Assembly (NCBI GenBank): GCA_040222015.1
Contig: JAVJWO010000040.1
Location: forward strand, 32,001-96,000
Length of the DNA stretch: 64,000 bases
Source of the DNA: Coleofasciculus chthonoplastes F2-STO-03
GTDB lineage: Bacteria; Cyanobacteriota; Cyanobacteriia; Cyanobacteriales; Coleofasciculaceae
Direction: 5' to 3'
The notes under the pieces were generated by a model that was given only the letters and a program-made list of their open reading frames with translations, searched no databases and was not told the DNA's origin. Shown here piece after piece: positions 13,042 to 53,378 of this stretch. The stretch's first letter is position 1. Every line of letters begins with the position of its first letter. The translations under genes were made by a program, and so were the position numbers.

Positions 13042-13842
13042 TTATCCAAATTGCCAAATTGCCAATTCTTTACCTACATTTAACTGTGCATTGTCACCGA
13101 ACGTGAACGTTCTTTCTGGATGCGGTTGATCCTTCATCGTACAAACAACTTGGCGAATTCGATACCTTGGAGCAACATTCTGGGATACTTGTACCGTAAA
13201 ACCATCAGAACGATAGATGGTAATATCTCCGACGCCAGATGAGTGATAGCCAAAAGATCGAAGCAGTAATCCGAGTTCCTCATGTTCCGATACAGTCAAT
13301 TCAAGATGAACCTCTGATATATCTTCAAATAAAGACGTTTCGCAAGTATCCAATGTTTTCAGATACGCCCCACGGTCAAAGCAACCCCCAGGGGTAAGTT
13401 TGATGTTTTTATACTCTAAATAATCCTGATCAAATTCCATTAACCACGCAGCGAAGGCTTCTCTCTCTGATGGGTTGAGTGTCAAGTAATGAAACCAGGG
13501 AACTTTGCCATTTTCGGTTTGACGAACTTGCAAATCACAAAACGTTTCTTTGGCGCCGAAGGCTCTTAGTTGTTCCGCTACACTATCAATTTGTCCGGCT
13601 TGTTGAGTATTGAACCCAATACCCGAAAACCCTTCCTTCAATCCTTCAGCACCTCCTGGAGGAAAAAGTTCAAGATAGGCATAGTTGCCCCTGAGATAAA
13701 TTCCCGACCAACTCTCTGTATCCGTTTCTACGGTATCTCTGGATATTGTGCAGAATGATTGGTTAATGAACTCGGATTGGGCGATTGATTCTAGGGTGTC
13801 TGTGTCGAGCGTCACATATAAATGGTTAAATTCTATTCCCAT
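13042..13842 (-). CDS. hypothetical protein, DUF5829-like (glyoxalase/VOC-like features)
   Basis: FNHLYVTLD...WSGIYLRG..YLELF pattern recalled for this family. Confidence 0.55.
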   Translation of the reverse strand: MGIEFNHLYVTLDTDTLESIAQSEFINQSFCTISRDTVETDTESWSGIYLRGNYAYLELFPPGGAEGLKEGFSGIGFNTQQAGQIDSVAEQLRAFGAKETFCDLQVRQTENGKVPWFHYLTLNPSEREAFAAWLMEFDQDYLEYKNIKLTPGGCFDRGAYLKTLDTCETSLFEDISEVHLELTVSEHEELGLLLRSFGYHSSGVGDITIYRSDGFTVQVSQNVAPRYRIRQVVCTMKDQPHPERTFTFGDNAQLNVGKELAIWQFG

Positions 13843-14226: not shown

Positions 14227-17200
14227 TCAACTGTGAGACTTTCCAGGGATTGACCAGCGCTTGATCCGACCAATGGTGACGGGCATATTCAGCGCCACAT
14301 CTAGGGTAAACCGGAAGACTCGCCGCGATCGCCGACCGTTTTCCGGGTCAAAGAAGATTAGTAATACATCCCAGCAATCGCTATTAATCCGGCAGTAGGG
14401 GCTTTTCTTCACCTCAATGGTGTCCAGTTGACGCTCAGAGGCGATCGCTTCGGCAAAGACGGAGGCGGATTGGAAGATGTTGGTGGCGGCGAAGTTGAGG
14501 GCGCGATCGCGTGAGGTTTGTCCCAGGTTACGCAAGTCGTGGTAGACGCGGTTCAGGAAGGCGCTCAAGGCTTCCCGGATTAGGGGTTCTTGGTCGGGGT
14601 CAAATCGGTTACTAATGGCGGCTAGGGCAGCGTTTACTAGGGCGTTGACGGTCCAACCATACATCCCGCGCACGTTATTTACGGTTACAACAGGCACGAC
14701 TTCCCCGGAAAAGAGTTCCACAGTGCGGGTGGTGCGGCGAGCGGGTAGACTGATCCGCTCCACAAAGCCATCGCTGGTGTCTGGCTCTAATTGCCCTGCT
14801 AACATCAGCAGGAAAACTTCGTAAATGTCGTCGGCAAAGGGTCCTTTGGGTTCTAAGACATAGATGGTGTTTTGATCCAGGTTGAGTGTCCAGATTAGGG
14901 AGCGCCGTTCGTCGGGGTAGCGATCTAGGTGTTCCAGCATTTGGCGCGGATCGTAGGGGTCTGGCGGTACCATGATGCCATCAATTTCGGCAGGTGCCAT
15001 TAGTTGCTTGAATGTATCGCGGCGGGCTTCGTCGCCAAAGTCGTAGCCCAGGGTGCCAAGGGCGTAAACGTTACCGGAAAAGGCGGTGCTGGCTTCAACA
15101 GTGGCGGGGTTGGCTAGTGCAGCATCGGAGTCAGCCGCCGCGATAACCGAGGCTTCTGTGGGTGTAGCGGGTTGTACGGCGGGGCTGGCGGGGGTGGGCA
15201 TGGCATAGCCAGGGCGTTGGGTGCGGGTTACTTGGTCGCCAGCAAAGGAAATCGTGACCGAGGGTTGACCAAATAGCACCTTCATCGCGCCAGAGATATT
15301 CACAAAGCCGCGTAAACAGCGATCGGGTTCTTCGACAACATCGGGGTCACAAGGAATGGCGGTGTTGAGGAGTGCCATGCGGACGGCTTCGGCATCGACG
15401 GGTTTGCCTTCTTGCAGTTGCAGACTCATCAGCAGGGCAGAAATCCCGGTCATTACTGGTGCAGCAATACTTGTACCCTTTTGGCGTACAGGTTCATCTG
15501 TGGCGGGTTGTGCACACAGAACATCCTCACCCGGAGTCATGATGCCCTCTTCTGCATAGTTACCACCCCAATTGCTATAGGGTTGGGGCATACCATCTTT
15601 TTTCATCGCTCCCACAGCCAGGGTTCCTGGTAGCACAGCGGGAATACACCAGCATTCGCCTTTATCGTTGCCAGCGGGAGCCACAATCAAGATGTTGTTG
15701 TCTTGACACTTTTTCACAGTTTGGACTAGGAGTTCTTCCCCTTTACCTGTTTGGGTAGGACGACAAGCGGCACAGTGAATAATGTTTGCCCCCAAATCCA
15801 GGGCTAACTCGAAGCTACGGGCAAGATTCAAAGGAGACATCATTTCCGAGCTGCCCATGCTGTTGATTGGTACATTAATCACTCGACAGTTGGGTGCCAA
15901 ACCGGGAGCTGGGGTGTGTTCCTGACCCACAATTACGCTGGTGACATGACAAGCATGGCGATCCATATAAATGCGGTCGGCAAGCGAGTCGGACAGAGCC
16001 GCTTCTAAAGCCGCCAGTTTAGCTTTGCCTTTCAAATCACTGTTATCGATTTCCCGGTATGTTGCGTGGTCTTCTGGAGAAATCGGCTCTGGAGTCTCAT
16101 GCCAATAGGGAAAAACCTTAGAGACTTCAGCACCCTCAAAACACGACAATGTATGGTCGGGGCTACCGTCCAAAATTACGATCGTGATGCGAGGATCACC
16201 CAGAGTTTGGTTGCGTAGGTTTACCAGTCCGGGAATGGAATTATCCAGGTCATGGGGGTGGAGTGCCACCGATATTTGGGTTGCAGAACTCTCAACCTCA
16301 CTTGCTAAGATAGCTGCCAATTCAATTTTATCTTCCCCACTATCTGATTCAATTTTATTCGCAAAAACATCTGAATTTATTGTTTCCACCGATTCTTCTA
16401 AAGCATCTATCTCAAAAGCCTGAGTGACAATTTCCTCAACTTGAATTAATGCCTTGTCAGACGCGCACACAGACTCTGTAGTATCTGTAGGTTGAGTTAA
16501 GGAGCGACACTCAACATCAGCAGGCTCAGGTTCCACTTCATCCTTATCAAATGCCTCTTCATTCACTGAATTTGACACCTCTGATGAGTCTACAGAAATA
16601 TCAAACTTAGTGTATGACTTAACCCTACTTGCGGCAACATCCCAGTTCAGTCTTGATCCCAACATAAACTCACCCACCGCCGACTCTTGCACATAGTCCA
16701 ACCTAGCTGCTCGCCCAAAACCATCACTATCTCCACTTCCCAGAGCACAGGGAGCCAGCCCCATATTCGTCGCGACTAAGTAAAGGTTGTACTGCAACAC
16801 CCCAACGTGTTTGAGTACTAACGCATAGGCAACGGAGCGATACTTGCGGAATAGCCGTCCAAACCGCGCCGTAATCACTAGAAGTACTTGTGGTTTTGGT
16901 TCATAGTAAACATAAGGTTCCAGAGCCAAGACATTCTCCGACTCAGCAATCTGCTCTAGTTGGTGATTCAGTGGGTCGTAATGATATAGCCCTTTGAGCA
17001 AACCTTCGCAATGTCGCACTACCAGATAAATCTCTAGCTCGTACATTGCTCCGGCACTAGGGTAGGGACGGCGTCTCGACTCACCATATTCAAAGTCAAG
17101 CTCCAAACCTGCTTGCCGTTTCCAATCATCACCAAACTTATCTTCAGGTCGGTAAATTTCTTTGACACGCGCCGTACGATAAAGCAGTTCACCTAATTGC

Positions 17201-18069
17201 TCAATCCTAATTGGATGCATTTCATCGTATTCTCGAATCGATTCCCTTGCTTCGATTGCTTCCGTTAGCTTGGCATCGTTGCACATCAACCCCTCTAGGC
17301 TCGGACGTGGCAGTGGTGTAATTTTGTGGCTCATGGGCGGCTTGATCACCGGAAAATCCGACCATTGGTCAATACAACGCTGGATATCCTCTCCTGGGTA
17401 GTCATGGCGACCCAAGCGGCTGCGGCTGTGGAAAAGCAAGTTATGGAAGTCCCAAAGCTGAAGCGAGGGGGATTCAGAGTCAACGCTTAGGAAGCCCGAT
17501 GCCCATAACAGGTCGAGAAACTGATAGGCTGTTTCCGGTCCCAGATAGGGAGGAGGAGTTAATCTGGCTAGAAACTGGGGCTGGGCGAGTTGGGCTATTA
17601 GCGCACTAGCCCGCCAGTCGAGAAGTTTTACCCGAAACGGCGAAAGTGGGGATTCCAGCACCATCGCATTTTCGTAGGAATGCTGGTAGGCAAAGCGCGA
17701 GAGGCTCACACTTGAATGTGTCCAAGCAGGTTCGATCAGGTTAAGCTTGGCAGTTTGTACCATCGGGATCGCTACGGCTAGCGGCAATACCGCATAACAT
17801 AGCCAACCTCGTTCTTCTAGCTGTTGCAACGTCACTGCGAACTGCTCCCCAGCAGCCTTACCTTCTCGTTCTGCTAGGGCTTGCACCAGTGCTTCGGCAG
17901 TGGTACGACCTTCCTGAAGGTGTTTGAGAGCGTTGCTAAGTCCAGGGGTTGTGGCAAGGTTCAGCAAGGCAGTCGAAGTTAGCCCTCTCGCCGCTAGGGT
18001 ATATTGGTCTTCAGACGTTGTGATTTCAATAGCAGGGTTGAGAGAAATGGCAAAGGGGTAGATGATCAT
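14227..18069 (-). CDS. patG: cyanobactin PatG: FMN-dependent azoline oxidase + subtilisin-like macrocyclase + PatA/G C-terminal domain
   Basis: Oxidase motifs RESIREY, RPYPSAGAMYELE; protease triad ILDG / HACH / GTSIAAP; helical insert YWHETPEPISPED...LEAA; C-terminal YALGTLGYDFGDEARRD, KSPYCRINSDCW. Confidence 0.95.
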   Translation of the reverse strand: MIIYPFAISLNPAIEITTSEDQYTLAARGLTSTALLNLATTPGLSNALKHLQEGRTTAEALVQALAEREGKAAGEQFAVTLQQLEERGWLCYAVLPLAVAIPMVQTAKLNLIEPAWTHSSVSLSRFAYQHSYENAMVLESPLSPFRVKLLDWRASALIAQLAQPQFLARLTPPPYLGPETAYQFLDLLWASGFLSVDSESPSLQLWDFHNLLFHSRSRLGRHDYPGEDIQRCIDQWSDFPVIKPPMSHKITPLPRPSLEGLMCNDAKLTEAIEARESIREYDEMHPIRIEQLGELLYRTARVKEIYRPEDKFGDDWKRQAGLELDFEYGESRRRPYPSAGAMYELEIYLVVRHCEGLLKGLYHYDPLNHQLEQIAESENVLALEPYVYYEPKPQVLLVITARFGRLFRKYRSVAYALVLKHVGVLQYNLYLVATNMGLAPCALGSGDSDGFGRAARLDYVQESAVGEFMLGSRLNWDVAASRVKSYTKFDISVDSSEVSNSVNEEAFDKDEVEPEPADVECRSLTQPTDTTESVCASDKALIQVEEIVTQAFEIDALEESVETINSDVFANKIESDSGEDKIELAAILASEVESSATQISVALHPHDLDNSIPGLVNLRNQTLGDPRITIVILDGSPDHTLSCFEGAEVSKVFPYWHETPEPISPEDHATYREIDNSDLKGKAKLAALEAALSDSLADRIYMDRHACHVTSVIVGQEHTPAPGLAPNCRVINVPINSMGSSEMMSPLNLARSFELALDLGANIIHCAACRPTQTGKGEELLVQTVKKCQDNNILIVAPAGNDKGECWCIPAVLPGTLAVGAMKKDGMPQPYSNWGGNYAEEGIMTPGEDVLCAQPATDEPVRQKGTSIAAPVMTGISALLMSLQLQEGKPVDAEAVRMALLNTAIPCDPDVVEEPDRCLRGFVNISGAMKVLFGQPSVTISFAGDQVTRTQRPGYAMPTPASPAVQPATPTEASVIAAADSDAALANPATVEASTAFSGNVYALGTLGYDFGDEARRDTFKQLMAPAEIDGIMVPPDPYDPRQMLEHLDRYPDERRSLIWTLNLDQNTIYVLEPKGPFADDIYEVFLLMLAGQLEPDTSDGFVERISLPARRTTRTVELFSGEVVPVVTVNNVRGMYGWTVNALVNAALAAISNRFDPDQEPLIREALSAFLNRVYHDLRNLGQTSRDRALNFAATNIFQSASVFAEAIASERQLDTIEVKKSPYCRINSDCWDVLLIFFDPENGRRSRRVFRFTLDVALNMPVTIGRIKRWSIPGKSHS

Positions 18070-18125
18070 AGTTATGAATTTTGTTAAATCAATTCCTCAT
18101 TTGCATAACATTTCGTTAAATTTTT

Positions 18126-19073
18126 TCACAAAATCTTGATGCTATGCCTTGATTTATCTAGTTGGGTGTAGTAAAATCTAAATTCATTTAAGCAATTGTT
18201 CTCCGTTTCTCGCTCAGTAACACCTACCCAAGTGAATGCATTAGCCTCTTGATTTTTGCAAAAGGAATAGATTCTGTTACCCAAATCGTTAAAGGAAAAA
18301 TAATTAGGAATATATTCGATTTCCTTAAAACCAAAATATAAAACTGGCTCTAAATTTGCCTTAGAGAAGCCCACATTAAGAAGGTCTGAAGCCTCAAAGA
18401 TGGAAACAATTTTTTTTGTAAATTTTTTTCGTATGTAAGGTCTTAAGCATCTTCCCCAATTACCCCGAAGTTCATGTTTGCCTCCCGGAGTAGTAGCATA
18501 TAGCTCTATATAGCTACGACCATCCAAGAAAAAATCAAATCCGATCAGTGTTACACTTTTTAACAGAATTTCTGTCAATTCAGCTGAGTAGTGACCCCCA
18601 TCAAGAGTGAGCGCTGTCCTCACCAGCTCTTCAGGATTTTCCTCTCTATTGATATGAATGTGTATTTTTACACTGGAGTCCTCAAGTTTCGGGTGTAAAT
18701 CGATTCCTACAGTATTGCCAACAATTTTTTTAGACTCAATATGTATGGCTAAGAAACGCTGAAGCAAGTCGCGGTTAATTTCAACACCTATCCGAGTTTC
18801 GATTCGATCTAAAAACTGTAGAGCTTGTACCAAAGATTTTGGCCAGGTATGTACTAGCTCACCACGAGCTGCAAAACGCCCTGCGAATAACCGATTGCCT
18901 TCAACTTTGCAAGAGGCTTCAATACCACAAGGGTATTCTATTTCAAGAACTACTTCCTCAAAAATCTTGATAGGAAATGTTGGTTCTACATCAAAAACAT
19001 TTTGATGGGTACGCATAAACTGGAGACGACGCTCTCGCAGCTGATGATATTGTAGTATGGAAGTTATGGTCAC
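18126..19073 (-). CDS. cyanobactin PatF/TruF/LynF-family ABBA prenyltransferase
   Basis: RLQFMRTHQNVFDVEP, IEASCK, GIDL...SSVKIH, IGFDFFLDGRSYIELY, FRFYY. Confidence 0.9.
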   Translation of the reverse strand: MTITSILQYHQLRERRLQFMRTHQNVFDVEPTFPIKIFEEVVLEIEYPCGIEASCKVEGNRLFAGRFAARGELVHTWPKSLVQALQFLDRIETRIGVEINRDLLQRFLAIHIESKKIVGNTVGIDLHPKLEDSSVKIHIHINREENPEELVRTALTLDGGHYSAELTEILLKSVTLIGFDFFLDGRSYIELYATTPGGKHELRGNWGRCLRPYIRKKFTKKIVSIFEASDLLNVGFSKANLEPVLYFGFKEIEYIPNYFSFNDLGNRIYSFCKNQEANAFTWVGVTERETENNCLNEFRFYYTQLDKSRHSIKIL

Positions 19074-19182
19074 AATTTCATTTCCTCACGAGAAATATAT
19101 TCACATTAATTTGATGAAGTATAAAAAACCGTGGTTAGGTTGTTACGGCTGATTCCTGCTTGAAATTCTTTTGAAATATAAA

Positions 19183-20124
19183 CTATCCCACATAATGTTG
19201 ACATTGATCGCGTTTATTATATGAAAAACTGAAATTTTCCAATCTATAACTGTTTAACTCTCGCTCCTTGAAAGTTAAGGCAGCGTAATTCACACAATCC
19301 TGACTTATAACAAAATCGTAAATTCTATTTCCCAAGCTGTTGAACAAAACATATTTTTTCAGGTCTCTAATATTTCTAACATGGACAGATAAACTTGGTT
19401 CCACTTTTGTCCTAGGAAAATGAATGATCAAAAATAAGGAAGCTTCAAATAGGGATATGACTTTTTTAGAAAAGTGTTTCTGAATATAAGGCGTCAAATA
19501 TATTCCTCGATTTCTGGGGAAATCTTTCCCTTGACCTCCTGGAGAGCCAGACCAAAGTTCCACATCGCTGCGACCATTCAAAAAAAGATTGAATCCAATC
19601 AAAACCGTATCTTTAAGCAGTACCTGTAATAATTCAGGCGAGTAGCTACCACCATCAAGTGTGAGGGCTGTCCTTACTAACTCTTCCGGATCTTCTGCCA
19701 ATTCAAGATGCATATATATTTTAATGCAAGAATTCTCAATTTTTGGTCGCAAGTCAATTCCTATTGTGTTATTTGTAATTTTGTGAGAGCCAATATGAAC
19801 TTCTACAAACTGCTGTAGCAAATCACGATTAAGTTTAATGCCCACTCTACTTTCAACTTTATTCAATAATTTTACAGCATCGTTTAAGGAACTAGGCCAG
19901 GTATGCTCTTCATGAGAAACCTGATAATCTGTAGCAAAAAGCTGATCGCCTTCAACATGGCAAGTCGGTTCAACACCACAAGCGCCTTCCATACTTTGAA
20001 CGGCTTCTTCAAAGAGAGAGAGAATAAAGATTGGTTCTAAATCGAAAGCATCTTGATGGATACGCATAAACTGGAGACGATGCTCTCGCAAATTGTTTTG
20101 TTTAAATATACGAGTTAGATTCAT
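19183..20124 (-). CDS. second PatF/TruF-family prenyltransferase-like protein (divergent active-site motifs)
   Basis: RLQFMRIHQDAFDLEP, GIDLRPKIENSCIKIY, IGFNLFLNGRSDVELW; clear paralog of the neighbouring ORF. Confidence 0.88.
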   Translation of the reverse strand: MNLTRIFKQNNLREHRLQFMRIHQDAFDLEPIFILSLFEEAVQSMEGACGVEPTCHVEGDQLFATDYQVSHEEHTWPSSLNDAVKLLNKVESRVGIKLNRDLLQQFVEVHIGSHKITNNTIGIDLRPKIENSCIKIYMHLELAEDPEELVRTALTLDGGSYSPELLQVLLKDTVLIGFNLFLNGRSDVELWSGSPGGQGKDFPRNRGIYLTPYIQKHFSKKVISLFEASLFLIIHFPRTKVEPSLSVHVRNIRDLKKYVLFNSLGNRIYDFVISQDCVNYAALTFKERELNSYRLENFSFSYNKRDQCQHYVG

Positions 20125-20585
20125 AAGATATTCTTGTTTCAAAGAGTAAGTTGAATTTACGCGATCTAGTGGGAACTATTTTATTGAGTTACAGTTTATA
20201 GTCACAGAAAATTCTCGCTAAAGGCATGAGATACATTTTTAACCTAAAGAAGGCGAGGTAGATGAGATAACTGCATAGTTTTATGTATGTTTTAGTTTAC
20301 CTCAAGCCTCGCCTTTAGAGTAAAGCCTAGATAAAACTTCAGTGTTCAGACAGTTAACCACTGTGCAACCGAGACAAATAGACTTCACCTACAGCAAATA
20401 TACTGCACGAAGGCATCAACTGAGTTTTTTCACCAGCTTGCTTTTTTACGTTTTATTTTCCAGCACTCTGTTTGAGTTTTTTCCGTCTAGAAATTAAGGA
20501 AAACGCCAAAGCGCACCTCACGCAGTATAAGTATATTAGAGTGCAGATGCTTCTACACCTAATCGTCAGATGCTTCTACACCTAA

Positions 20586-20801
20586 TCAATCATCATAGGA
20601 GCAGGCACAAGTAGGAGCACACATGGATGCACCTACGCCATCATCATAGGAGCAGGCACAAGTAGGAGCACAAATAGATGCACCTACACCACTACCACCT
20701 AGAGCTTCCTCACAGAGTTCAGCCAAGTGGCTGGGGAGTTTACCATTGGTGCTGCGGATCACGGGTTTGCCTTGTTGGGGCAGAATGTTTTTCTTGTCCA
20801 T
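20586..20801 (-). CDS. patE: cyanobactin precursor PatE-type (71 aa) with cores ICAPTCAC and MCAPTCAC
   Basis: Leader MDKKNILPQQGKPVIR...LAELCEEAL, RSII GVGAS, RSIII SYDD, GAGG RBS upstream of the ATG at 20801. Confidence 0.95.
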   Translation of the reverse strand: MDKKNILPQQGKPVIRSTNGKLPSHLAELCEEALGGSGVGASICAPTCACSYDDGVGASMCAPTCACSYDD

Positions 20802-20929
20802 TGGACTAATCCTCATATTGTTGTTTACTTTGTTAACCCGTTGGGGTGGGTTAGTCCCCTTCCACCTTGCGGCGAAGCTTGTTAGTTGGCACCTGGTTTG
20901 AAGAGAATTATGAGTTGCCAATCAAATTC

Positions 20930-21352
20930 TTAAATATCTGGTGGATGCCAATTTTCAGCCACCCAAATTTGGCGTGATCCGATCGCATAGTCGTTGTTGA
21001 CTTTTAGAGCAGAGACAGTGGCTCGACCAACTGCGGTCAATCCCTTAATTTGTGTACCTTCCTCTATCCAGGCAAAATGTTCAGCCCAAACCTGTTTCCG
21101 GGGATGAAACAGGGTGACAAGTTTTCCTGTTTGGGGGTCAATCCCTTGAGTCTTGGCTCCTTTAAACAGATTGCAGCGATAGCATGAAGCCGCCAGATTA
21201 GCGCGATCGCTACTTCCGCCTAGAGCGCGAGGAATAATGTGGTCAATCACAAGTGGCATTCCGATTAAACATTGTTGGGTTTGACAATATTCGCAACATT
21301 CCTGGGCTTGCGAAATCACCTGTTGACGAATCCCTGGAGAGACAAAGGACAT
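20930..21352 (-). CDS. HNH endonuclease
   Basis: CCEYC, IDHIIPRALGG, NLAASCYRCN, LFHPR...W.EHF. Confidence 0.9.
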   Translation of the reverse strand: MSFVSPGIRQQVISQAQECCEYCQTQQCLIGMPLVIDHIIPRALGGSSDRANLAASCYRCNLFKGAKTQGIDPQTGKLVTLFHPRKQVWAEHFAWIEEGTQIKGLTAVGRATVSALKVNNDYAIGSRQIWVAENWHPPDI

Positions 21353-21355
21353 GGG

Positions 21356-21769
21356 TTAGTTGCCAGAGAGTTGGCTCAAATCGCGGATGGGCTGCCCTCG
21401 CCACCGTAAGATGGCACAGGCATGAGCTTTTTTGAGCATGAATCGATCCGCAGCTTGGGAGAGTTCCTGCAATTCTTGATGCTCGGCTTCTGAGAGTAAG
21501 CCCTCCTGATTGCGTTCTAGCAGGGTGATATGGCGTTCCTGTTGCTCCACAGGAATCTGGCTTTGGGCAATTTGCCGCAGAGCTTCAACGCTCAGAGTTG
21601 GCAGGGTTAACAGTTCACTCCGAGCTTCAACCGGAGCCGTTTCAATCGCCGGGGGTAAATTGCCGGTGATACTTTGAATCACCAGATAGGACAACGGTTG
21701 GTTGGTCAGTTCTGCCAGTCGAGATAGGCGTTCAAAGGCAGATTCAGGCAGGTCGATGGTAAGTTGCAT
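21356..21769 (-). CDS. RHH/CopG-like protein, putative antitoxin partner of the HNH gene
   Basis: N-terminal MQLTIDLPESAFERLSRLAELTNQP; ends 3 nt upstream of the HNH start. Confidence 0.65.
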   Translation of the reverse strand: MQLTIDLPESAFERLSRLAELTNQPLSYLVIQSITGNLPPAIETAPVEARSELLTLPTLSVEALRQIAQSQIPVEQQERHITLLERNQEGLLSEAEHQELQELSQAADRFMLKKAHACAILRWRGQPIRDLSQLSGN

Positions 21770-21781
21770 GATGATGTTGAT

Positions 21782-22274
21782 TTATGTCAAAGACAACTTA
21801 TTAGACAACTTGTAAAATTTCTGGAGTTGGCAGAGGCTTTCCTGTTTGCCTGTAGCCATTGGCTTTGGCAATAGTGGATGTATCCAAGATGTATCCAATA
21901 GGAATCTTACTTTTGGTCGGGATCTGGAAAACCTCTCTCCAAACCTCTCTCCTGCAAGGAGAGAGGCTTTGAATTCTCCCCCTTCCGTGGAACAAAAGCG
22001 AAGCATCCTCTGTCCTCCCCCCGTGCAAAAAAAGCGAAGCATCCTCTGTCCTCCCCCCTCTTGTAGGGGGGAATGAGGGGGGTTGGGGGGAATGAGGGGG
22101 GTTGGGGGGAATGAGGGGGGTTGGGAAGGGGGCTGGGGGGAAAGGGTTTGATATCGATTTTTCTAGATGGCGTGAAAAGTCAGAATAGGAATGGCTACCT
22201 TTACCACGTTTTGGTAAGAGTGTAAACCCAGCTTGTTGAAACATTTGCTTTAGCTCCCTGATTGTCTTAGGCAT
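21782..22274 (-). pseudogene. hicA: HicA-type toxin pseudogene interrupted by a MITE
   Basis: MPKTIRELKQMFQQAGFTLLPKRGKGSHSY | WIHPLLPKP once the insertion and an 11-bp duplication are removed; GKGSH motif. Confidence 0.8.
21906..22183. mobile_element. 278-bp MITE with 9-bp target-site duplication AATAGGAAT
   Basis: Ends CTTACTTTT...AAAAGTCAG; AATAGGAAT at 21897-21905 and 22184-22192; internal G-rich and AAAAGCGAAGCATCCTCTGTCCTCCCCC repeats. Confidence 0.85.
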
Positions 22275-22289
22275 TTCACAAACTAGCTC

Positions 22290-24620
22290 TTAAAATGGCA
22301 TCGGTGTCGGGTTCATCTGCGCCTCAGTGAGCGGTTCATCCCGCCACCCCAGCTTCACTGGCACATCATAGAGCCGCCCTGCCCCAAACCGTGACCAAAA
22401 ATGGCGCATCTCTGGCACAATCACCTTAACCACATTTAAACCAATGTCTGGTCGGGTTTGATCCAGCACCAAGGTTTCTAGCCCCGCTTGCTGGGCAATC
22501 TCCACACAGGCGAGTACCTCGGCGTAAATATCATCTCCCCAAAGCTTGGGGTAATCCTGGGCAGTCTTCAGGGGTTGCTTGGCATCAGGAACCAGATAGG
22601 GATGATCCGCCAACTTCGCATTCAGTAACCAATCCGCTGCATCGCTTTTCAGGTTCTCATCTGGCACCTTGTCCAGTTCCAAACCCAGTTGATTCACCTC
22701 TGTCAGGGCGCGAAGGATGGCAATCGTGGGGTCAAGGTGCGCTCCAAAGCCGAGAATCAGCCGTTCCGAGGTTCCAGTCTGCCGATTCGACACGCCGACA
22801 AACGCGGGAATGCCTAAATCTGCCGTCAAATCCAGCACCCACAACTCTCGGTCATGGTCCCGGTAGTACCGCTGCAACGCCTGGAAATACGGCTCATCAA
22901 AGCTGCTCAAATCCACCGCTGGACGGCTCAGGCGGTTGTACCACCACAGCGCCACACTGTCGCGCTCCACCAGTTCCAGAAACCCTTGCAGGATTGCCTC
23001 TTCCAAGGTGTTCCCCGCCGCATTACCGTTGGAGTCACCTCGGCAGAAGCGGTGTGCTGGGGGCAAGGGGTAATGGTAGTAGCACATTGCCGTGGGTAAA
23101 TACTTATGCGTCTGCTGCGTGAGGGACCACATTGGCGTCCAATCAATCGCCTGACTCGGAGCAAACCGTTGAGGAATCCAATCATGAGCCACCGTTGCCT
23201 GCTCATTCAGGGTGTCCCGATTGGCATATTGCGCTTCACTAAAGCACAAACACCGCTGCGGATGAATCGCCAAGTCTTCCAGTTCCGCCAAGGTAGCCCG
23301 TCTCCGGGGTTCATCCCCCTGAAAGATACCGGAATAGCGCTCCACCGCCTCACACAACCCACTCGCCCGGGATTGGCTATCGGTTTTGCCTTTACCGGAA
23401 CTCTTGTGTTTCAAGGTATTCCGTAGCCCCCGCAGGGAGGTGGAACTACCAAAACTATGCCCCGCTTTGTAGGTATGCACCAAGGGATTCGCGGGGTCAG
23501 AAATCCGCACCAGTTCCGTTACCACCCCCGTCACTGGACTAATGAGATGCTGATATTTCTGCACCGTCTGTTCTGGGGTAGTAGCACGATGACCGCCATC
23601 CTGGGTGAACTGCTTGGGACGCGACTCCAGGTTCAGCCGCTCAAACCCCCGCCGTTGCAAGAGTTGCGGGTTACCACAGGTGGGACATTGAGGACGCCGG
23701 ATCAGGGCATGGGTTTTCAAATCCGGGAGCATCTGGTTGAACGTGATAATCTTGCCCTCTAGGGTGGGGAAAAACACTGTTCCCGATGTCGTGGTATTGA
23801 TATAGTGCTTAACCACCCACTTAGCAATCTCCGTCGCCGCCAACTGTAACCCGGTTTGCTGAGTTGAGGGCAGCGTCGCCCGTGCTGTGGGAAAGCAACC
23901 CAGCATCCCCTGCCCATTCTCACCATTGCGCTGCTGCTGTTCCTGTTTTTGCCGCAACACCGACGACTCCACTTCCCGGTTCCCCCGGAGGGGATGGGCA
24001 AGACAGTGCCAACACCCCGTCTTCCCCGGCACAAATACCGGACCCAGCCACAGCACACTACCCACCGGCTTCACCAGTAACCAAGGTTGCTGACGCTCTA
24101 AAGCTTGCTGGTTAATCGTCGCCAGTTCCGGTTGCAAATAGTCATCGGTTAAGACAACATTCAGCGCCGTTGGCGAATCCGCGTCGGGAGGTGCCACGGA
24201 AATGCCCACGTCCCCCAGAGCAGCTTTCAGGGCTGCCACCGTCACCTCACTAATCCCCTGACCCACCGTTGTCAGCGTCACCGACTGCTGTAGCCCCTGG
24301 GCTGCCACGGGGGGGGCAATCCCTAACTCACTCCAGAATGCCGCCACGTCTGAAGATAGCTCTGGCGCCGCTTCGGTGAGATACCCCTTCTCTGCCAAGC
24401 GATTTAGCACATAGTCGATGTAGTCTGGGGGGACTTCCCCATCCAGCTTTTCGACAATCTGCTCTAGGGTGTATTGCCCATTTAACAGGGGCAGAATCTG
24501 GCAGTAGAGTTGTCCGGTGAGGGCGTGGTTGCCCTGTTCACCCAGGAGATACACCTGCTTCGGCTCGATGATCTCCACATGGAAGTGGGGCTTAATTTGG
24601 GGCAGTGTCGTGGATTCCAT
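22290..24620 (-). CDS. patD: cyanobactin heterocyclase (RRE + E1-like + YcaO), PatD/TruD/LynD family
   Basis: QIKPHFHVEIIEPKQVYLLGE, SSGKGKTDSQSRASGLCEAVER, SNGNAAGNTLEEA, C-terminal PTPMPF. Confidence 0.97.
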   Translation of the reverse strand: MESTTLPQIKPHFHVEIIEPKQVYLLGEQGNHALTGQLYCQILPLLNGQYTLEQIVEKLDGEVPPDYIDYVLNRLAEKGYLTEAAPELSSDVAAFWSELGIAPPVAAQGLQQSVTLTTVGQGISEVTVAALKAALGDVGISVAPPDADSPTALNVVLTDDYLQPELATINQQALERQQPWLLVKPVGSVLWLGPVFVPGKTGCWHCLAHPLRGNREVESSVLRQKQEQQQRNGENGQGMLGCFPTARATLPSTQQTGLQLAATEIAKWVVKHYINTTTSGTVFFPTLEGKIITFNQMLPDLKTHALIRRPQCPTCGNPQLLQRRGFERLNLESRPKQFTQDGGHRATTPEQTVQKYQHLISPVTGVVTELVRISDPANPLVHTYKAGHSFGSSTSLRGLRNTLKHKSSGKGKTDSQSRASGLCEAVERYSGIFQGDEPRRRATLAELEDLAIHPQRCLCFSEAQYANRDTLNEQATVAHDWIPQRFAPSQAIDWTPMWSLTQQTHKYLPTAMCYYHYPLPPAHRFCRGDSNGNAAGNTLEEAILQGFLELVERDSVALWWYNRLSRPAVDLSSFDEPYFQALQRYYRDHDRELWVLDLTADLGIPAFVGVSNRQTGTSERLILGFGAHLDPTIAILRALTEVNQLGLELDKVPDENLKSDAADWLLNAKLADHPYLVPDAKQPLKTAQDYPKLWGDDIYAEVLACVEIAQQAGLETLVLDQTRPDIGLNVVKVIVPEMRHFWSRFGAGRLYDVPVKLGWRDEPLTEAQMNPTPMPF

Positions 24621-24652
24621 AGCGCGAACAGTCGGTGATTAAGTGTGAGTGC

Positions 24653-24679
24653 AAGAAGGCAGAAGGCAGAAGGCAGAAG
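24653..24679. repeat. STRR (AGAAGGC)n
   Basis: Read directly. Confidence 0.8.
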
Positions 24680-24685
24680 GTGGGG

Positions 24686-24927
24686 CGGACTTTTCACAGT
24701 ATGTAGCCCAATGTGAGTGTGAATTGTGTAGGGGCGGGTTTCACCACTCTCTTTTCGGTTGCAACTAGATGTAACTAAACCCGCCCCGACTCAGGTTTTG
24801 AGTCTCTATCTGTAGGGTGTGTTAGCGTAACGCACCATTGCCACTAAACCCGCCCCGACGCGCCATGGCGCGTCTCTACAGATGCCGCGTCTCTACAATA
24901 GTTTTTAGGCGTCCCGTGAAAAGTCAA
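24686..24927. mobile_element. MITE-like element between patC and patD carrying nested REP palindromes
   Basis: Ends CGGACTTTTCAC...GTGAAAAGTCAA; interior similar to 84-241. Confidence 0.65.
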
Positions 24928-24932
24928 GACGA

Positions 24933-25148
24933 TTAAGCCCAGATACGCCCCCGACGGAAAGACTTGGATTTGCTCCCAGATTTTTTTGCCTCCTCCCGGG
25001 CGTAGTCCCACCAATAGGAGTAGTCTTGTAGCCCAGTCATCGACGTCGGCACGTAGGACTTTGGGGGTTCAGGCGTAGGCGTCTCGTTAGCTGGAGGGGC
25101 GTCTGACGCCTTATCTTCAGAGTTTTGGCTGCTCGATTTCTTGCTCAT
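24933..25148 (-). CDS. patC: PatC-type protein from an internal start (71 aa)
   Basis: AAGGAG-N6-ATG directly before MSKKSS; PatC motifs. Confidence 0.75.
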   Translation of the reverse strand: MSKKSSSQNSEDKASDAPPANETPTPEPPKSYVPTSMTGLQDYSYWWDYAREEAKKSGSKSKSFRRGRIWA

Positions 25149-25808
25149 GTTAATCTCCTTATAATAAATAGGGGTCTGGCTACCACAAATAATTTGCTCA
25201 AGAACTGCCGCAAAATTTGTTGGCGCATCCACAGCGGCGAAAAACTGTCCCTGGGTTTCAGCCGCAACTCTGGCATATTCTGGCTGAATAGTGTCACGGT
25301 GCTTGCTTTTGGACATACCCAAATAGGTATGAACTCGAACGTGAGAAGCTTGGGCGCTTTGAATTGCTAAATTCGCCGCCTCAATATCCGCTGCCTCAGT
25401 TTTGCCACCACCGCCTTCCAGGGCTTCATCACCCAGATAAAATAGGGAACGATAAGCTTGCTCTCGCCAATCGAAATGGTTTGAGACATCTTCAATAGCA
25501 CGAGCAGCATCTTCTTGAGCACCCGCTGAGGGAAGTTCACCTCGCTTGCGCCCCCGCAGTTTAGCCTCAGCCACTCCACAGTCTTTTGTGAGGTAAGTTC
25601 GCAGCGTGCGCTTAAATGCCGTCCCGCGCCATCGCCCCTCAATCCCCAGCCAAACCACCCGCAAATCCGCCGGACAGTTCGCCTCGGCTGCGGTAATCGC
25701 GGCTGCCACCGCATCACTGACGGCATTGGCAACATCTTTCATCGAAGGACTTGTATCCATCAGGATCACCAAATCAACGAGTGGTATTGTGCTAGCAGAA
25801 TTACTCAT
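24933..25808 (-). CDS. vWA (MIDAS) domain protein fused in frame to cyanobactin PatC
   Basis: DLVILMDTSPSM (DxSxS), EDAARAI, FYLGDEA; C-terminal TGLQDYSYWW...FRRGRIWA is PatC/TenC/TruC-like; no stop between the two parts. Confidence 0.85.
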   Translation of the reverse strand: MSNSASTIPLVDLVILMDTSPSMKDVANAVSDAVAAAITAAEANCPADLRVVWLGIEGRWRGTAFKRTLRTYLTKDCGVAEAKLRGRKRGELPSAGAQEDAARAIEDVSNHFDWREQAYRSLFYLGDEALEGGGGKTEAADIEAANLAIQSAQASHVRVHTYLGMSKSKHRDTIQPEYARVAAETQGQFFAAVDAPTNFAAVLEQIICGSQTPIYYKEINMSKKSSSQNSEDKASDAPPANETPTPEPPKSYVPTSMTGLQDYSYWWDYAREEAKKSGSKSKSFRRGRIWA

Positions 25809-25851
25809 AGGGATACTGACGTCACCTTTACTTCTCAAACCATTGACCGAA

Positions 25852-26088
25852 TTAAAAGAAGCTTCCCATGCCGCCAAAGCCACCCCAACCCTGGCTAGCA
25901 CTTGAGTGCATCACTTGGTTAAAACTGCGGTTGGCATAGGCGGACGGATCGTTATAGTTAGCGCCATGGAGCAAATCCATGCGAATATGCACCAAATCTT
26001 CGAGCCGACCATTTTCCACATCCACGCATAGTGCTGGCTGGACGAAATGGGGTCGTTTGACCGGGGGAGACAATACAGGTAGTCGCAT
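25852..26088 (-). CDS. patB: cyanobactin PatB/AcyB family protein
   Basis: MRLPVLSPPVKRPHFVQP...LVHIRMDLLHGANYNDP. Confidence 0.92.
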   Translation of the reverse strand: MRLPVLSPPVKRPHFVQPALCVDVENGRLEDLVHIRMDLLHGANYNDPSAYANRSFNQVMHSSASQGWGGFGGMGSFF

Positions 26089-26214
26089 TGTTGAAAATCC
26101 TCCACAATTAACGTATAGAGTGAACAGGGGTGTCGGGTTAGGTGTTCATTGTCGGGACACAGCACTACCGTGCCTGTACAACTATCCCAACCCTGACCCC
26201 AATTTGGCTGTCCC

Positions 26215-28212
26215 TTAGTAAGGGGAAGACCAGGAACGGACTTCGCCCAAGGTAACCGGAACCAGGTCACTCACATCAATCGTAAATCGGAAAATCTTCT
26301 TGGCACGACGATTATTTTCCGGGTCGAAGAATTTCAGCTTCACATCCCAACAGTCGCTATCCATACGACAGAAGGGACTTTTCTCCACGGTGATGCTATC
26401 GAGTTCCATCCCCACCGCAACCGCTTGGCTGAAGGTTTGCGCCGCTTGGAAGGCGTTGGTAACCGCGAAGTTAAGGGCGCGGTCTTGAGACGTAGTACCC
26501 AAGTTGCGGAGGTCGTAGTAGATGCGGTTGAGGAATCCATCCAACGTCTGACGGATACGACCTTCATCCGCTGTTGTTTCCTCAGTTTGTACGGCTTCCA
26601 TCGCCGCACTCACCAAGTTGTTCACCTTCCAGCCGTAGATGCCCCGGGTTCCCAGGGGTTCAATCACGGGGATAACTTGACCGGAGAAGAGCTTAACCGT
26701 GCGCTTGGTTAAAATACCCGGAATACTGACGCGCTCCACGTATTCAGCATCATTTTCGGCTTGGATTTGACCCGCCAAAAGTTCCTGCAGGGCGCGGTAG
26801 GCATCGACGGCAAAGGGACCCGTGGGCGCGATCGCATAAACTGGAGTCAGTTCAACATTGAGCGTCCAAATCAGCGATCGCGATTCCGACATATTATCTC
26901 CCAGATAGTCCACCATCTGGCGGGCATCATAGGGGTTTGCCGGCACCATCGTCCCCTGAAAGTCAAAGGGCGGCATCAGTTGCTTAAACGAGTCCCGACG
27001 GGCTTCTGAGCCGAAATCATAACCCAGAGTTCCCAAAACATAGACAATTTCACCGAGAGAGGGGATCTCGCTGGGGGCTTCGCTGGCGGTAACGGAATGA
27101 GCAGTAAGATTGGGCATAGTGGGCATAGCAGGGGGTTGGGGTACAGAATTCATCAGGTTTTGCAGGTTGGGACTGTTCGTGGGCATTGCCCCTGGGGGTG
27201 AAGACGGGGCGGACTCAGCGCTTGGCGCTTCTGTCCCACTGGTCAACCCCCCCACACACCCGCAACCTGCGCCTTCCACGCCTGCTTCATCAACGGTGGC
27301 TGCATCAACGGCTGATGCAAGTTCCTCTGACATAGTTCCTCCTGTTAGTAACGTTACAGCTCCAGATATGTTGAGTTTGCCCGCCAGACACCGCTGGGCA
27401 TCAGCGGGCAGGTCAAAGTCACAGGGCAATGCACTCTGCAACAACACTTGACGCACTCTTTGGGGGTCAGGGATTTCCCCCCGTTCCCGTTGCAGACTCA
27501 GCAGCAGCGCCGCCACCCCCGACACAATCGGCGTGGCAAAGCTCGTACCACTCAGCGTCTGAGTTCCCCCACCGGGTTTTGCCCCCAAGACATCCTTGCC
27601 GAGGGCAAGAATGCCTTGAGTCTTATAGGTGTCACCCCAGTTACTAAAGTCCAAGGGCTTGCCGTTGGCATCCATGGCGCCAACAGCCAGGGCAGCGGGC
27701 AGGGCAGCCGGGACATGGAGACATTCGCAGCCATTGTTACCCGCCGCCGCAATCAGCAAAACATTCTGCTGCTCACATAAGCGCACCGCATTCTCCAGCC
27801 AGCCGTCGGCTTCCCCAAAATCCGTGAGTTGACCGCCACTGATGTTGATAACGTGCGCTCCGGCGTTCACTGCCCGCTCAATGCCCCGCGCCAAGTCTAA
27901 CTGGGATACACGGCGGCGATTATCGGAAAAGATGGGAACAATCACCCCTTGGCATTGCGGTGCAATCCCCGTCACCGGACTCCCCGGTTGACCCAAAATA
28001 ATGCTGGAAACATGGGTGCCGTGAACCGACATATTACCATCCGGACGAGCCTCCTCATTCACCAGAGACGGCAAGCGCGTCAGGGTTTTGCCGACAAAGC
28101 AAGGATGGGTTTGGTCAACCGGTCCATCCAACACGGCAATGCAAATATCCTTGTCACCCTGGGTCATCGCCATCAACTCCGGCAATGCAGGTATCGCCAA
28201 AACAGCAGACAT
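26215..28212 (-). CDS. patA: cyanobactin N-terminal protease PatA (S8) with C-terminal domain
   Basis: IAVLDG, HGTHV, GTSFATP; C-terminal LGYDFGSEARRD, KSPFCRMDSDCW. Confidence 0.96.
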   Translation of the reverse strand: MSAVLAIPALPELMAMTQGDKDICIAVLDGPVDQTHPCFVGKTLTRLPSLVNEEARPDGNMSVHGTHVSSIILGQPGSPVTGIAPQCQGVIVPIFSDNRRRVSQLDLARGIERAVNAGAHVINISGGQLTDFGEADGWLENAVRLCEQQNVLLIAAAGNNGCECLHVPAALPAALAVGAMDANGKPLDFSNWGDTYKTQGILALGKDVLGAKPGGGTQTLSGTSFATPIVSGVAALLLSLQRERGEIPDPQRVRQVLLQSALPCDFDLPADAQRCLAGKLNISGAVTLLTGGTMSEELASAVDAATVDEAGVEGAGCGCVGGLTSGTEAPSAESAPSSPPGAMPTNSPNLQNLMNSVPQPPAMPTMPNLTAHSVTASEAPSEIPSLGEIVYVLGTLGYDFGSEARRDSFKQLMPPFDFQGTMVPANPYDARQMVDYLGDNMSESRSLIWTLNVELTPVYAIAPTGPFAVDAYRALQELLAGQIQAENDAEYVERVSIPGILTKRTVKLFSGQVIPVIEPLGTRGIYGWKVNNLVSAAMEAVQTEETTADEGRIRQTLDGFLNRIYYDLRNLGTTSQDRALNFAVTNAFQAAQTFSQAVAVGMELDSITVEKSPFCRMDSDCWDVKLKFFDPENNRRAKKIFRFTIDVSDLVPVTLGEVRSWSSPY

Positions 28213-47039: not shown

Positions 47040-47248
47040 CAGTTTTGGTTTTGTTGAGTGTGGCTTATAGGTTATCAAGTATCGGAAGGGGGTGCTTCCG
47101 CAGGGGTGGCATAATTTTGGGTACAGAGGCGATCGCGCCCTCGACTCGTCCCCCTCTCAATCCCATGGAGATAAGTTGGATTAGAGTGTTAAGGAAGAGC
47201 GATCGCCTATCTCACTCCAGCAGCGACGTCATACACAGGTTAGCCACT

Positions 47249-48283
47249 ATGAACACATCTGAGTTGGATAAGTACAAAGTCGATCATCTGTTCTTGCTCA
47301 TTGGGGAAAATCCTTTGCCTAATTATGTAGCTGCCAGACTCTTGTTAAACAAGGGAGGTATGCCCTATCTGGTTTACTCAAAGGGTACAAAAGATCCAGC
47401 GGAGCGTTTACAAACAATATTGAGTAACGAGTCAATTGGCTTAGAAACAGCTCAACTTGTGCCACTTAATGATTACGAATCCGATGCTTATCACATTAAA
47501 AATGCGATTCGTCTAAGACTAGAATCTATCAAAGTGGGAAACATTGGATTGAATTACACGGGTGGTACGAAGGCGATGGCTGTACACGCTTACAGAGCCG
47601 TTTTCAGCAAAGAGCGTCCCGACACTGTTTTTAGCTATCTTGATCCACGCAAGCTAGAGATATGTATTGATCGAGAAGATTCTCCCTGCATCGGCATTAA
47701 AGTGAAGCCAGAATTGTTGGAAGTCAAACTTGTAGAGTTTTTTAATCTTCACGGTTTGAAGTTAAACGGAAAACCTACTCAAGAAGTGCAATTACCTGAA
47801 TTAGCAGCAGCACTTACCCAAGTATTTAATAATGAGGATAAAGCAAAACGGTGGTTTGATTGGTACTGCAATGTTTTCTGTAAAGAGGCTCGTAAGAAGA
47901 AAAATGGCAATTGGGGTGATTGGAACAGCAAGACAAAATTAGCTGCATTATCAATATCAGTCGAAAAATTACCGCCAGAAGTTGAGGCTGAGTTTAAGGG
48001 AGAAAACTTAATTGATTCAACTGGCAAACTCTCGTTGCAAGCAGTACAACAATTAAAGACCATAAAACAGGAGCCTGTCTTTAAAGAAATCAAGGATTTT
48101 TGTAAATACCTGGACGGCTTGTGGTTAGAGCATTATGTTTTGAAAAAAGTCAAAAATATTGCTGATAAAAACTATATCAAAGATTGCGGACTTAATTTTA
48201 AAGTATCTCTCCCAGGAACTCAACAGGGATTTGAATTTGATGTGTTGGTGAATACTTCTGGGCAAAGGAAGGAGGGATTGTAA
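47249..48283 (+). pseudogene. CARF-domain nuclease (Card1/Can2/DUF1887-like), truncated within the nuclease motif
   Basis: LFLLIGENPLPNY, LNYTGGTKAM, G.WLEHYV, GFEFDV followed by unrelated sequence and a stop; no following D/ExK. Confidence 0.75.
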
Positions 48284-49440
48284 AGTTATACAAAGAAAAG
48301 CGACGGATTAATATTCATAATTTTCGCGATCGCAAAAAAGGGAGAGCGACAGATAATCAAGGTGAACTCTTCCGCTACGAGGCTTTAGATGCAGGACAAA
48401 CCTTTCAATCTATCATCCTTTGTGAAGATGACGATGTAGAAACCATTCAGAATTTATTAGCCGAACCAAATATCTGGTTAGGAGGTTCTCAAAGTGCGGG
48501 ATACGGACATACTAAAATTATTGAAACCCAACCATCTAGCACGAATTGGAGTGAAATAGGAATTTCAGCAGAAGACCGAGAAAATGATGACGTTTTGAGT
48601 ATCACCCTTCTCAGTGACACGCTGTTAAGAAACGATCAGGGTCAACCTGTAGCTGATCCAAGTTTAATTAAACAAGCGATCGAGGATGTTTTAAATATAA
48701 CCTTGCCTCAACCTAAACCAGGAGGTATTTTCACTAGCAGTACGTTAATCGGTGGCTTTAACCGGAAATGGGGATTGCCTTTACCTCAAGTTCCAGCCTT
48801 AACAGCAGGGAGTGTGATTGTTTTTGAAAGTGAAGATATTGCAATTACTACAGAACAAATTAAGCTACTTGAAGTTTGCGGAATTGGAGAGATAAGAGAA
48901 GACGGTTTTGGGAGGATTGCTGTAAATTGGCTAAACGATGAATATATTCAAGTAAAATTAGCCAAGTTATCTAGTACCTCCAGCTTACCGCCGTTAAGAA
49001 GCGAAGACTCGCGGCTTTTGGCTGAACAAATGGCACAAAGACTGTTGGAACAAAAGCTAGAACAATATCTTCAAAAACAGCTTGGATATTTAAGTTTGGA
49101 TGAGGGCATGAGTAACAGCCAATTATCACGACTGCAATCTGTTGCCCGACAAGCACTTCCCAACGGAGATTGTAATTTAGTTATCTCGCTGCTAAATAAC
49201 TTACCCTCTAATGCTAAGAATCAGTTTGAGCGCATAAAATTAGGAAACAAATCGTTCAGAAAACAGCTAGACGAGTGGCTAGAAAATCCGACAAATTGGA
49301 TTAATGGTATAGAATTAAAAATTGCTGATGTAGAGCGCAAATTTGATGACGATCGCGCTCGACAAGATAAGCTAGCTGAAAAGTACACGCTACGCCTAAT
49401 TATGGCAGTAGCCAAGAAGGCAACTAAGGAGAAAAACTAA
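48244..49440 (+). pseudogene. csx10: Csx10 RAMP protein, 5'-truncated
   Basis: Open frame from ~48241 without a start: KRRINIHNFRDRKKGRA, FRYEALDAGQTF, LGGSQSAGYG, GGFNRKWGLPLPQ, GIGEIREDGFG. Confidence 0.8.
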
Positions 49441-50745: not shown

Positions 50746-50816
50746 ATTTTAATTATTTGTCTCAATAGCATCGAACTCACATTAAAATAAGAATAGATTG
50801 CATTAAGGAGCAAATT

Positions 50817-51443: not shown

Positions 51444-53378
<1,935 letters not shown>

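Follow-up and report, generated by a model that had tools for sequence, protein, structure and literature searches.

A complete cyanobactin cluster of Coleofasciculus chthonoplastes predicted to make two cyclic octapeptides with a tawicyclamide-type ring

Several described cyanobactin systems bear on the locus considered here. Tawicyclamides A and B of Lissoclinum patella have the sequences VCFCICVP and VCLCICVP and contain two thiazoles and one thiazoline each; in Table 1 of a 2010 compilation they are not marked as genetically confirmed or as confirmed products of Prochloron (PMC2854353). The lyn pathway of Lyngbya sp. PCC 8106, which makes aestuaramide, uses the heterocyclase LynD and a fused oxidase, and its cores (ACMPCYP and VCMPCYP) give Pro-ending heptapeptides with a prenylated Tyr. 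The tru pathway to trunkamide and the patellins has two adjacent F genes, a Cys-preferring D protein, and a TruG without the oxidase; patellins 3 and 6 are octapeptides with a Pro-Thr motif, and the patellins contain one thiazoline. Tolypamide, from the tol pathway of Tolypothrix sp. PCC 7601, is a cyclic hexapeptide with thiazolines whose Thr is O-prenylated by an F enzyme (PMC10304443, PMC10496146). The present analysis concerns a locus on the minus strand of a 64,000-nucleotide stretch of DNA from Coleofasciculus chthonoplastes F2-STO-03 (assembly GCA_040222015.1, contig JAVJWO010000040.1, positions 32,001 to 96,000), referred to below as the window. By its gene content, the locus is a real and complete cyanobactin cluster, and it quite probably encodes a mosaic pathway leading to two head-to-tail cyclic octapeptides with the tawicyclamide type of ring.

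The genes, domains, catalytic motifs, and cassette layout of the cluster can be read directly from the DNA (Table 1). On the minus strand, the order is patA, patB, an open reading frame (ORF) that fuses a vWA domain to PatC, patD, a pair of genes for RHH-like and HNH proteins, patE, two F genes, and patG. None of the core genes contains a frameshift or stop, and each exceeds the curated cut-off of its Pfam or NCBIfam profile, which bears out the original observation that patA, B, C, D, E, two F genes, and G are all open. All of the parts by which a cyanobactin cluster is recognized are present: an A protease with its catalytic triad and a DUF, a G protease with triad, helical insert, and DUF, B and C genes, and a precursor in which a leader and recognition sequence I (RSI) precede cores that lie between RSII and RSIII and have a heterocycle-type end. 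The whole genome holds a single precursor leader and a single full PatG. Among the 401 genomes of the host's order, 72 contain patB, and the patB-bearing clusters mostly carry cores of their own. A promoter scan was uninformative (22 sites versus 18.0 +/- 3.9 in shuffles).

Table 1. Features of the cyanobactin locus and its immediate neighbors, given as positions in the window
Feature	Position	Strand	Evidence or remark
patA: N-terminal subtilisin protease and C-terminal DUF	26215-28212	-	TIGR03895, 926 bits
patB, 78 aa, function unknown	25852-26088	-	TIGR04220, 124.9 bits
vWA-PatC fusion, 291 aa	24933-25808	-	TIGR04447 on last 34 aa
patD: fused RRE/E1-like/YcaO heterocyclase	22290-24620	-	YcaO profile; LynD/TruD PDB matches
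HicA-like relic broken by short repeats	22176-22274	-	Weak Pfam HicA, E 0.026, below cut-off
137-aa protein with weak RHH-like N-terminus	21356-21769	-	Pfam E 0.06, below cut-off
HNH endonuclease	20930-21352	-	PF01844
patE precursor, 71 aa	20586-20801	-	TIGR03678, 77 bits
RSI LAELCEEAL within patE	20700-20726	-	Sequence
Core 1, ICAPTCAC	20652-20675	-	Sequence
Core 2, MCAPTCAC	20601-20624	-	Sequence
Upstream F, degenerate prenyltransferase homologue	19183-20124	-	TIGR04445; ATG at 20124 inferred, TTG at 20142
Downstream F, prenyltransferase	18126-19073	-	TIGR04445; active-site residues intact
patG, 1280 aa: oxidase, acidic linker, macrocyclase, DUF	14227-18069	-	TIGR03895, Pfam/NCBIfam
patG oxidase domain	16654-18069	-	Pfam and NCBIfam
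patG macrocyclase domain	15265-16272	-	Pfam and NCBIfam
patG DUF	14242-15102	-	Pfam and NCBIfam
DUF5829 protein	13042-13842	-	PF19147; 3' of patG, beyond the span first predicted for the cluster

The precursor carries two cassettes, GVGAS-ICAPTCAC-SYDD and GVGAS-MCAPTCAC-SYDD, so that both cores have the GVGAS and SYDD flanks originally described. Two matches to the pattern C-x-P-x-C-x-C-(S/A)(Y/F)D lie in the window, compared with a mean of 0.00 in 100 shuffles. Position 30 of the leader is Cys, while 123 of the 124 precursors compared have Ser; since TruD processing is reported to be unaffected by the leader change S30F in a section of PMC3995012, this Cys is probably tolerated. Two short, imperfect repeats coding for RSII/RSIII (GVEASDD-like) lie 3' of the patE stop at 20540-20585. 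They were considered as a third cassette and rejected, as they contain stops and carry no core; they are possibly relics of cassette duplication.

The two cores had been called unfamiliar, and no characterized compound with either exact core was found. They were compared with 174 precursor records (120 of 147 homologue matches, 4 cluster members, and translations of loci), which together contain 152 distinct cores. This comparison, which had been proposed as a check, separated the two: ICAPTCAC was seen in no record but that of the window, whereas MCAPTCAC is shared with three others (P0001, P0122, and P0123), none of them named. Seven-residue sister cores of the form x-C-x-P-C-x-C are common in the same records (9 cores). 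When the ring pattern was combined with RSIII, it was found in 2 of 331 genomes of the phylum, the window's own and one with an 11-residue core. A scan of metagenome DNA for the core pattern gave no precursor among the 119 stretches listed, a result that has no bearing on absence. In full-text literature, the only match to CAPTCAC or APTCAC was unrelated in subject, as judged from its title and abstract; neither core appears in Tables 1-3 of PMC2854353 when rotations are compared by eye, and the predicted formulas are absent from the portion of Table 1 of PMC7345825 that was covered. Thus, within the literature and precursor records covered, both exact cores are likely, but not proven, to be new to characterized chemistry. 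Because fresh cores are routine in such clusters, the locus is best regarded as a new member of a familiar chemistry.

It is in the ring, rather than in the exact core, that the claim of unfamiliarity does not hold. Rotation of ICAPTCAC gives TCACICAP, which has the tawicyclamide ring x-C-x-C-I-C-x-P and is identical to it at 5 of 8 positions, and this match identifies the scaffold as known chemistry. Like the tawicyclamides, the predicted products are cyclic octapeptides in which three Cys-derived rings and one Pro alternate with other residues, with no oxazoline; they differ in having Thr, Ala, and Ala in place of Val, Phe/Leu, and Val, the Thr being the candidate prenyl site. Both window cores fit the general form x-C-x-C-x-C-x-P, and they are the only ones to do so among the seven octamer cores gathered. 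However, since Pro and azoles often alternate in cyanobactins, the match may be convergent.

The placement of PatD bears on which core residues would be cyclized. Its best match among solved structures is LynD (1534 bits), followed by TruD (1416) and MusD (1005). In a tree of 22 YcaO domains, from which split D genes were left out and in which PatD and MicD are absent, the window domain falls in a 7-row clade (support 99/95) with VAHDW/AAHDW and PMPF motifs, which resemble those seen when LynD and TruD are aligned. Five other rows form a second clade (100/99), marked by AAYRW and NIPF, that includes clusters with Ser/Thr-rich cores, one of them ending in Ser. TruD is described, in a section of PMC3995012, as handling Ser and Thr less well than PatD. 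By its clade placement, then, the window's PatD is a heterocyclase of the LynD/TruD type and putatively Cys-selective, and because of this grouping Cys2, Cys6, and Cys8 of each core would be cyclized and Thr5 spared. A range of three to four dehydrations had been proposed; three are now favored, and four are far less likely given the type of PatD. A second, unrelated fused YcaO gene, 46% identical to PatD, lies at G000:C193:26714-29389. Its neighbors, judged by eye, are a 110-aa ORF, an amidohydrolase-like gene, and a large kinase-like gene, possibly another peptide pathway.

The two proteases differ in the helical insert. PatA has the triad Asp29, His64, and Ser224 but is missing the helical insert; PatG has the triad Asp634, His705, and Ser867 together with the insert, and aligns over the full span of the PatG macrocyclase structure. 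The retention of triad and insert in PatG, and the lack of the latter in PatA, uphold the earlier description of a PatG suited to macrocyclization. Both Lys residues of the insert and the HACH motif are also kept. The residue numbers Arg589, Lys594, and Lys598 are those that we take PatG to have, and the role of the Lys-Tyr pair in the oxidase is likewise our assumption. In alignment with the ThcOx structure, the oxidase is full length with an RLFRKY motif; three related clusters have lost half of this domain, but the window's copy is intact. A kinase or methyltransferase insert was considered as the source of the extra length of the 1280-aa protein and rejected, the additional residues being an acidic linker with no Pfam match. 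An isolated fragment of the PatA/PatG C-terminal DUF lies near a contig end at G000:C182:5103-5435.

In five other G proteins (L171, L174, L176, L178, and L179), the triad Asp is replaced by Glu and the first insert Lys by Thr; the catalytic Ser lies in GTSG, and the insert is altered. They come from clusters with a gene for a fused prenyltransferase of about 570 aa, which are putatively taken as the linear aeruginosamide type, and they form one clade (100/100) that excludes the window protein. It is possible that these changes are a sequence marker of pathways to linear products.

Although both F genes are open, as had been noted, only the downstream one looks catalytically intact. The F proteins were compared, without TruF1 and MusF, at 11 active-site positions of our own choosing, guided by PagF residues whose numbers we presume. 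The choice also drew on PMC3668578, a section of which explains the inactivity of PatF by the loss of an Asp and a Lys, and the downstream F has both. This protein matches at 11 of 11 positions, as do 21 of the 35 other rows, including LynF, OcyF, and the Tolypothrix F, and it keeps the catalytic Glu and the diphosphate-binding Arg, Asp, Lys, His, and Tyr residues. The upstream F matches at 4 of 11 and groups with TruF2 in a 13-row clade (100/98); it is probably inactive. OcyF is the closest F protein with a solved structure; its printed sequence is matched by record P0132, which falls with LynF.

The pocket of the downstream F has His for Arg127, Asn at the donor gate, and Trp at position 282. 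This Trp is shared with LynF, OcyF, and PagF, whereas F proteins of clusters with Thr/Ser cores have Cys or Ser there. At the donor gate, the Asn stands against Met231 of P0134, and the gate of TolF is given as Met232 in the part of a review consulted. Thr5 is the sole hydroxyl in the cores. Since the intact F keeps the Trp of Tyr-accepting enzymes, O-prenylation of Thr5 by this protein is given roughly even odds, with the balance tilted slightly against it.

Comparison with the other described pathways suggests a hybrid. As in lyn, the locus has a fused oxidase, cores that start x-C-x-P, and a heterocyclase for which LynD is the closest solved structure. It differs in its Cys-ending octapeptides with no Tyr and in having a second F gene; the intact F shares only 52% identity with LynF and falls outside the 7-row LynF clade, so that the locus does not classify as lyn type. 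With tru it shares two adjacent F genes, one of them degenerate and grouping with TruF2, the predicted Cys preference of its D protein, and octapeptides with the Pro-Thr motif, but it has a full oxidase and cores with three Cys. Its predicted products share with tolypamide a cyclic form and Cys-derived rings, and Ala-Pro occurs both here and in the core TAPCYC of the Tolypothrix precursor P0025, whose link to tolypamide is inferred. P0134, which is TolF by inference, has a Met gate and a Cys where the downstream F has Asn and Trp; it is 52% identical to that protein and lies in a separate clade, and the two do not pair as orthologs. The locus is hybrid-like, joining features of lyn (a LynD-type D and a fused oxidase) to features of tru (two F genes and a possible Thr acceptor), while departing from each on a defining feature.

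Relatives of the cluster point to a mosaic origin. Compared with two loci of the same genus that have other cores (L183 and L184), PatA is 94-97% identical, PatD 83-92%, and the DUF of PatG 94-97%, but the F proteins are only 38-50% identical, and the oxidase and macrocyclase domains 55-72%. The GC content of the F genes is 37-38%, versus 51-56% for A, D, and G. It looks, from these values, as though the block from the cores through the macrocyclase was exchanged as a unit. In an independent DNA run from a hypersaline lake metagenome, contig X7 is about 95% identical to positions 15409-20622 (270 differences in 5192), and this conservation of the G-F-F-E block, together with the recurrence of MCAPTCAC, supports a working pathway. 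Two RNA runs, X5 and X6, cover the cluster as contigs only; because the longest records of these libraries are 57-109 kb, they probably represent DNA and were not counted as transcription. Run X1 is close over A, B, C, D, and the leader, with parts of F and G uncovered; the gap proves nothing and was not used.

These findings can be arranged in a pathway whose five steps are modeled on known pathways. The leader would be bound by PatD, which would convert Cys2, Cys6, and Cys8 of each core to thiazolines and leave Thr5. PatA would then cleave after GVGAS, and PatG would cleave before SYDD, behind the C-terminal thiazoline, and close the ring. Two or three of the thiazolines would be converted to thiazoles by the PatG oxidase. 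Finally, the downstream F may O-prenylate Thr5; the upstream F would have no catalytic role, and PatB, the vWA-PatC fusion, and the DUF5829 protein would be accessory. The probable products are thus cyclo-ICAPTCAC and cyclo-MCAPTCAC, each with three thiazol(in)es and perhaps an O-prenyl group. With three thiazoles, their computed [M+H]+ values are 703.2149 (Ile) and 721.1713 (Met), or 771.2775 and 789.2339 with C5H8, and each unoxidized ring adds 2.0157. Given the intact PatG, the intact oxidase, and the placement of PatD, the original prediction of two cyclic octapeptides that carry up to three thiazol(in)es remains the best reading.

Several observations nevertheless weigh against cyclic, prenylated products, and some of them favor other outcomes. 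The pathway is a prediction from the genes. The window macrocyclase is a lone branch, outside the PatG-like clade as well as the clade of the five G proteins above, and it has Asp at the presumed Arg589 position, acidic as in those putative linear-type proteins. These features, and the grouping (94/94) of the upstream F with F genes of three clusters with the fused prenyltransferase, would fit a pathway in which PatG only hydrolyzes, giving linear thiazole peptides that the intact F would prenylate at a terminus, as for muscoride or aeruginosamide. This is unlikely, since the triad Asp, both insert Lys residues, and HACH are retained and PatG lies outside the 100/100 clade. Furthermore, no fused methyltransferase-prenyltransferase ORF of the linear aeruginosamide/viridisamide type was found, and such fused proteins match the F genes at just 26-31%. 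The G protein of the trichamide pathway also lacks Arg at the position in question, and trichamide is counted among the cyclic peptides in a table of PMC2854353. As for the F protein, Trp282 is kept as in LynF, OcyF, and PagF even though the cores contain no Tyr, the His at the usually conserved Arg127 is found in only 2 of 22 rows, identity to F proteins other than the near-twin P0125 does not exceed 57%, and the protein lies outside the clade of the Tolypothrix F. In addition, 2 of the 5 rows in the second YcaO clade have no obvious cyclized Ser or Thr in their cores, and the competence of that clade for Ser and Thr is something that we presume from its cores and from general background.

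It is also conceivable, but rather improbable, that the cluster is intact yet silent or decaying, so that nothing is made. The libraries that match the cluster do not show transcription, a HicA relic broken by repeats and an HNH pair lie within it, and cyanothecamides went undetected for two years in normal culture, as recounted in a section of PMC4663559. However, the core genes have no frameshift or stop, the G-F-F-E block and core are conserved in the relative described above, and the RHH-like gene is not a fresh disruption, because 5 of 22 clusters, from different genera, have it at this place between D and E. Were PatD instead to cyclize Thr5 as well, four dehydrations would give a methyloxazoline of the patellamide kind and leave no site for prenylation. 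TruD-type enzymes are poorer with Ser and Thr rather than incapable (PMC3995012, in part), and F genes are also present in non-prenylated pathways, according to a section of PMC4663559. Against this, PatD is placed with LynD and TruD, and Thr5 stands at an odd position beside Cys6, with Cys and Pro occupying the even ones, whereas the patellamides of Table 1 in PMC2854353 alternate; the outcome is therefore judged very improbable. Least credible of all is a product in which only Cys8 is cyclized and Cys2 and Cys6 form a disulfide across the ring, as in ulithiacyclamide. The two residues do lie opposite each other, leader defects are reported in part of PMC3995012 to halt TruD after the terminal Cys, and the leader has its unusual Cys30 (1 of 124). 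But S30F is without effect in the same source, and the disulfide Cys residues of ulithiacyclamide, as tabulated in PMC2854353, are at odd positions, while all Cys residues here are at even, heterocycle positions. Formation of the two thiazole-containing rings thus remains the preferred interpretation of the locus.

The vWA-PatC fusion is a separate unusual feature of the cluster. According to sections of PMC4663559 and PMC4259220, PatB and PatC are non-essential proteins with no known function, and PatC is short. The C-terminal 34 residues of the fusion ORF are those conserved in the PatC/TenC/TruC family (TIGR04447), but here this tail is fused to another domain: residues of about 10-210 are predicted to have a vWA fold with a DTSPS (MIDAS-like) motif, followed by a flexible linker. 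The alignment-based model has a pLDDT of 78 overall and mostly >90 in the domain (44 for a single-sequence model), and its best Foldseek matches are the vWA domains of integrin, CMG2, and BatB, with E values from 5e-6. By sequence, the vWA part has no PDB match and no match to Pfam VWA at E 0.01, although relatives match weakly, one of them above the cut-off. As modeled, then, a vWA fold with a DxSxS motif is present. Among the 120 homologues listed (of 212), 29 end in the PatC motif, and three named loci carry the fusion between patB and patD. The vWA domain is under purifying selection (pN of 0.24-0.25 versus a saturated pS of about 0.75, with omega of 0.14 between two relatives). The family occurs in 27 of 401 genomes of the order, but lies within 2 kb of patB in only 8 of these 27, so most copies are elsewhere; in one cluster of the same genus the fusion is truncated, and another is without it. 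For these reasons, the fusion is dispensable. It did not come up among the best 20 of 3441 loose literature matches, and two cyanobactin papers do not mention von Willebrand domains; this says little about whether it has already been published.

An internal in-frame ATG, with AAGGAG upstream at 25148, could yield a PatC of 71 aa. An internal Met with a Shine-Dalgarno-like run is present in the DNA of 7 of 10 other long PatC genes, and the matching peptide motif in only 13 of the 29 fusions, but Lys/Glu-rich linkers yield such runs by chance. One idea is that PatC is a portable C-terminal address tag (TGLxDY...FRRGRIW) that may bring interchangeable binding domains to the pathway, in long and short forms: in this cluster a vWA domain with a metal site, and in others a CBM-like, laminin-G, or transthyretin-like domain. 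That this is both true and unpublished is doubtful, but it is given a real minority chance. The PatC tail is indeed joined in related clusters to a CBM-like beta-sandwich (weak leads), a transthyretin-like domain, and two laminin-G domains. These fusions are the long patC genes of L171, L173, L175, L177, L178, and L179, and the genes at L186:5855-6358 and L190:6565-8214. A short patC is directly followed by a separate gene for two tandem copies of the same vWA domain at L181:161-1804 and L182:4609-6255. The vWA-PatC clusters L003, L004, and L007 have several single-core precursors with identical leaders and unrelated cores.

Of the remaining neighbors, the gene for the DUF5829 protein probably belongs to the cluster. 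Of the order's 401 genomes, 13, which are partly kin, contain it, and in 9 of these 13 it lies within 13 kb of patB, one copy being broken; a language-model search links the protein to glyoxalase/VOC proteins, which is a lead only. The HNH gene, whose family has 15 matches in the genome and whose counterpart next to the RHH-like gene is intact in 2 of the clusters, is probably a passenger paired with that gene, and the recurrence of the RHH-like gene suggests a long-lived passenger, perhaps a toxin-antitoxin pair. Elsewhere in the window, and judged by eye, positions 47045-53378 contain type III CRISPR (RAMP)-like ORFs, some apparently broken, beside a WYL-like gene, and positions 54063-62591 contain a type I restriction-modification set (M, R, and a metalloprotease-like gene) with M or S apparently interrupted.

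Taken together, the analysis gives exact masses for two new thiazole macrocycles that it predicts, and the cluster is of a compact kind that has already been expressed in E. coli. It also offers a possible precursor register for the tawicyclamides, with Ile first and Cys last, and a divergent prenyltransferase whose sole likely acceptor is Thr. The vWA-PatC protein and its sister fusions may provide a handle on the conserved PatB and PatC. The importance of the locus is modest; it gains a little from its link to the tawicyclamides, from the divergent F, and from the vWA-PatC fusion. If the proposed pathway is correct, it would give the tawicyclamide ring a genetic source in a free-living organism, with the Thr decorated by an F protein that has an undescribed pocket (Trp282, an Asn gate, and His127).

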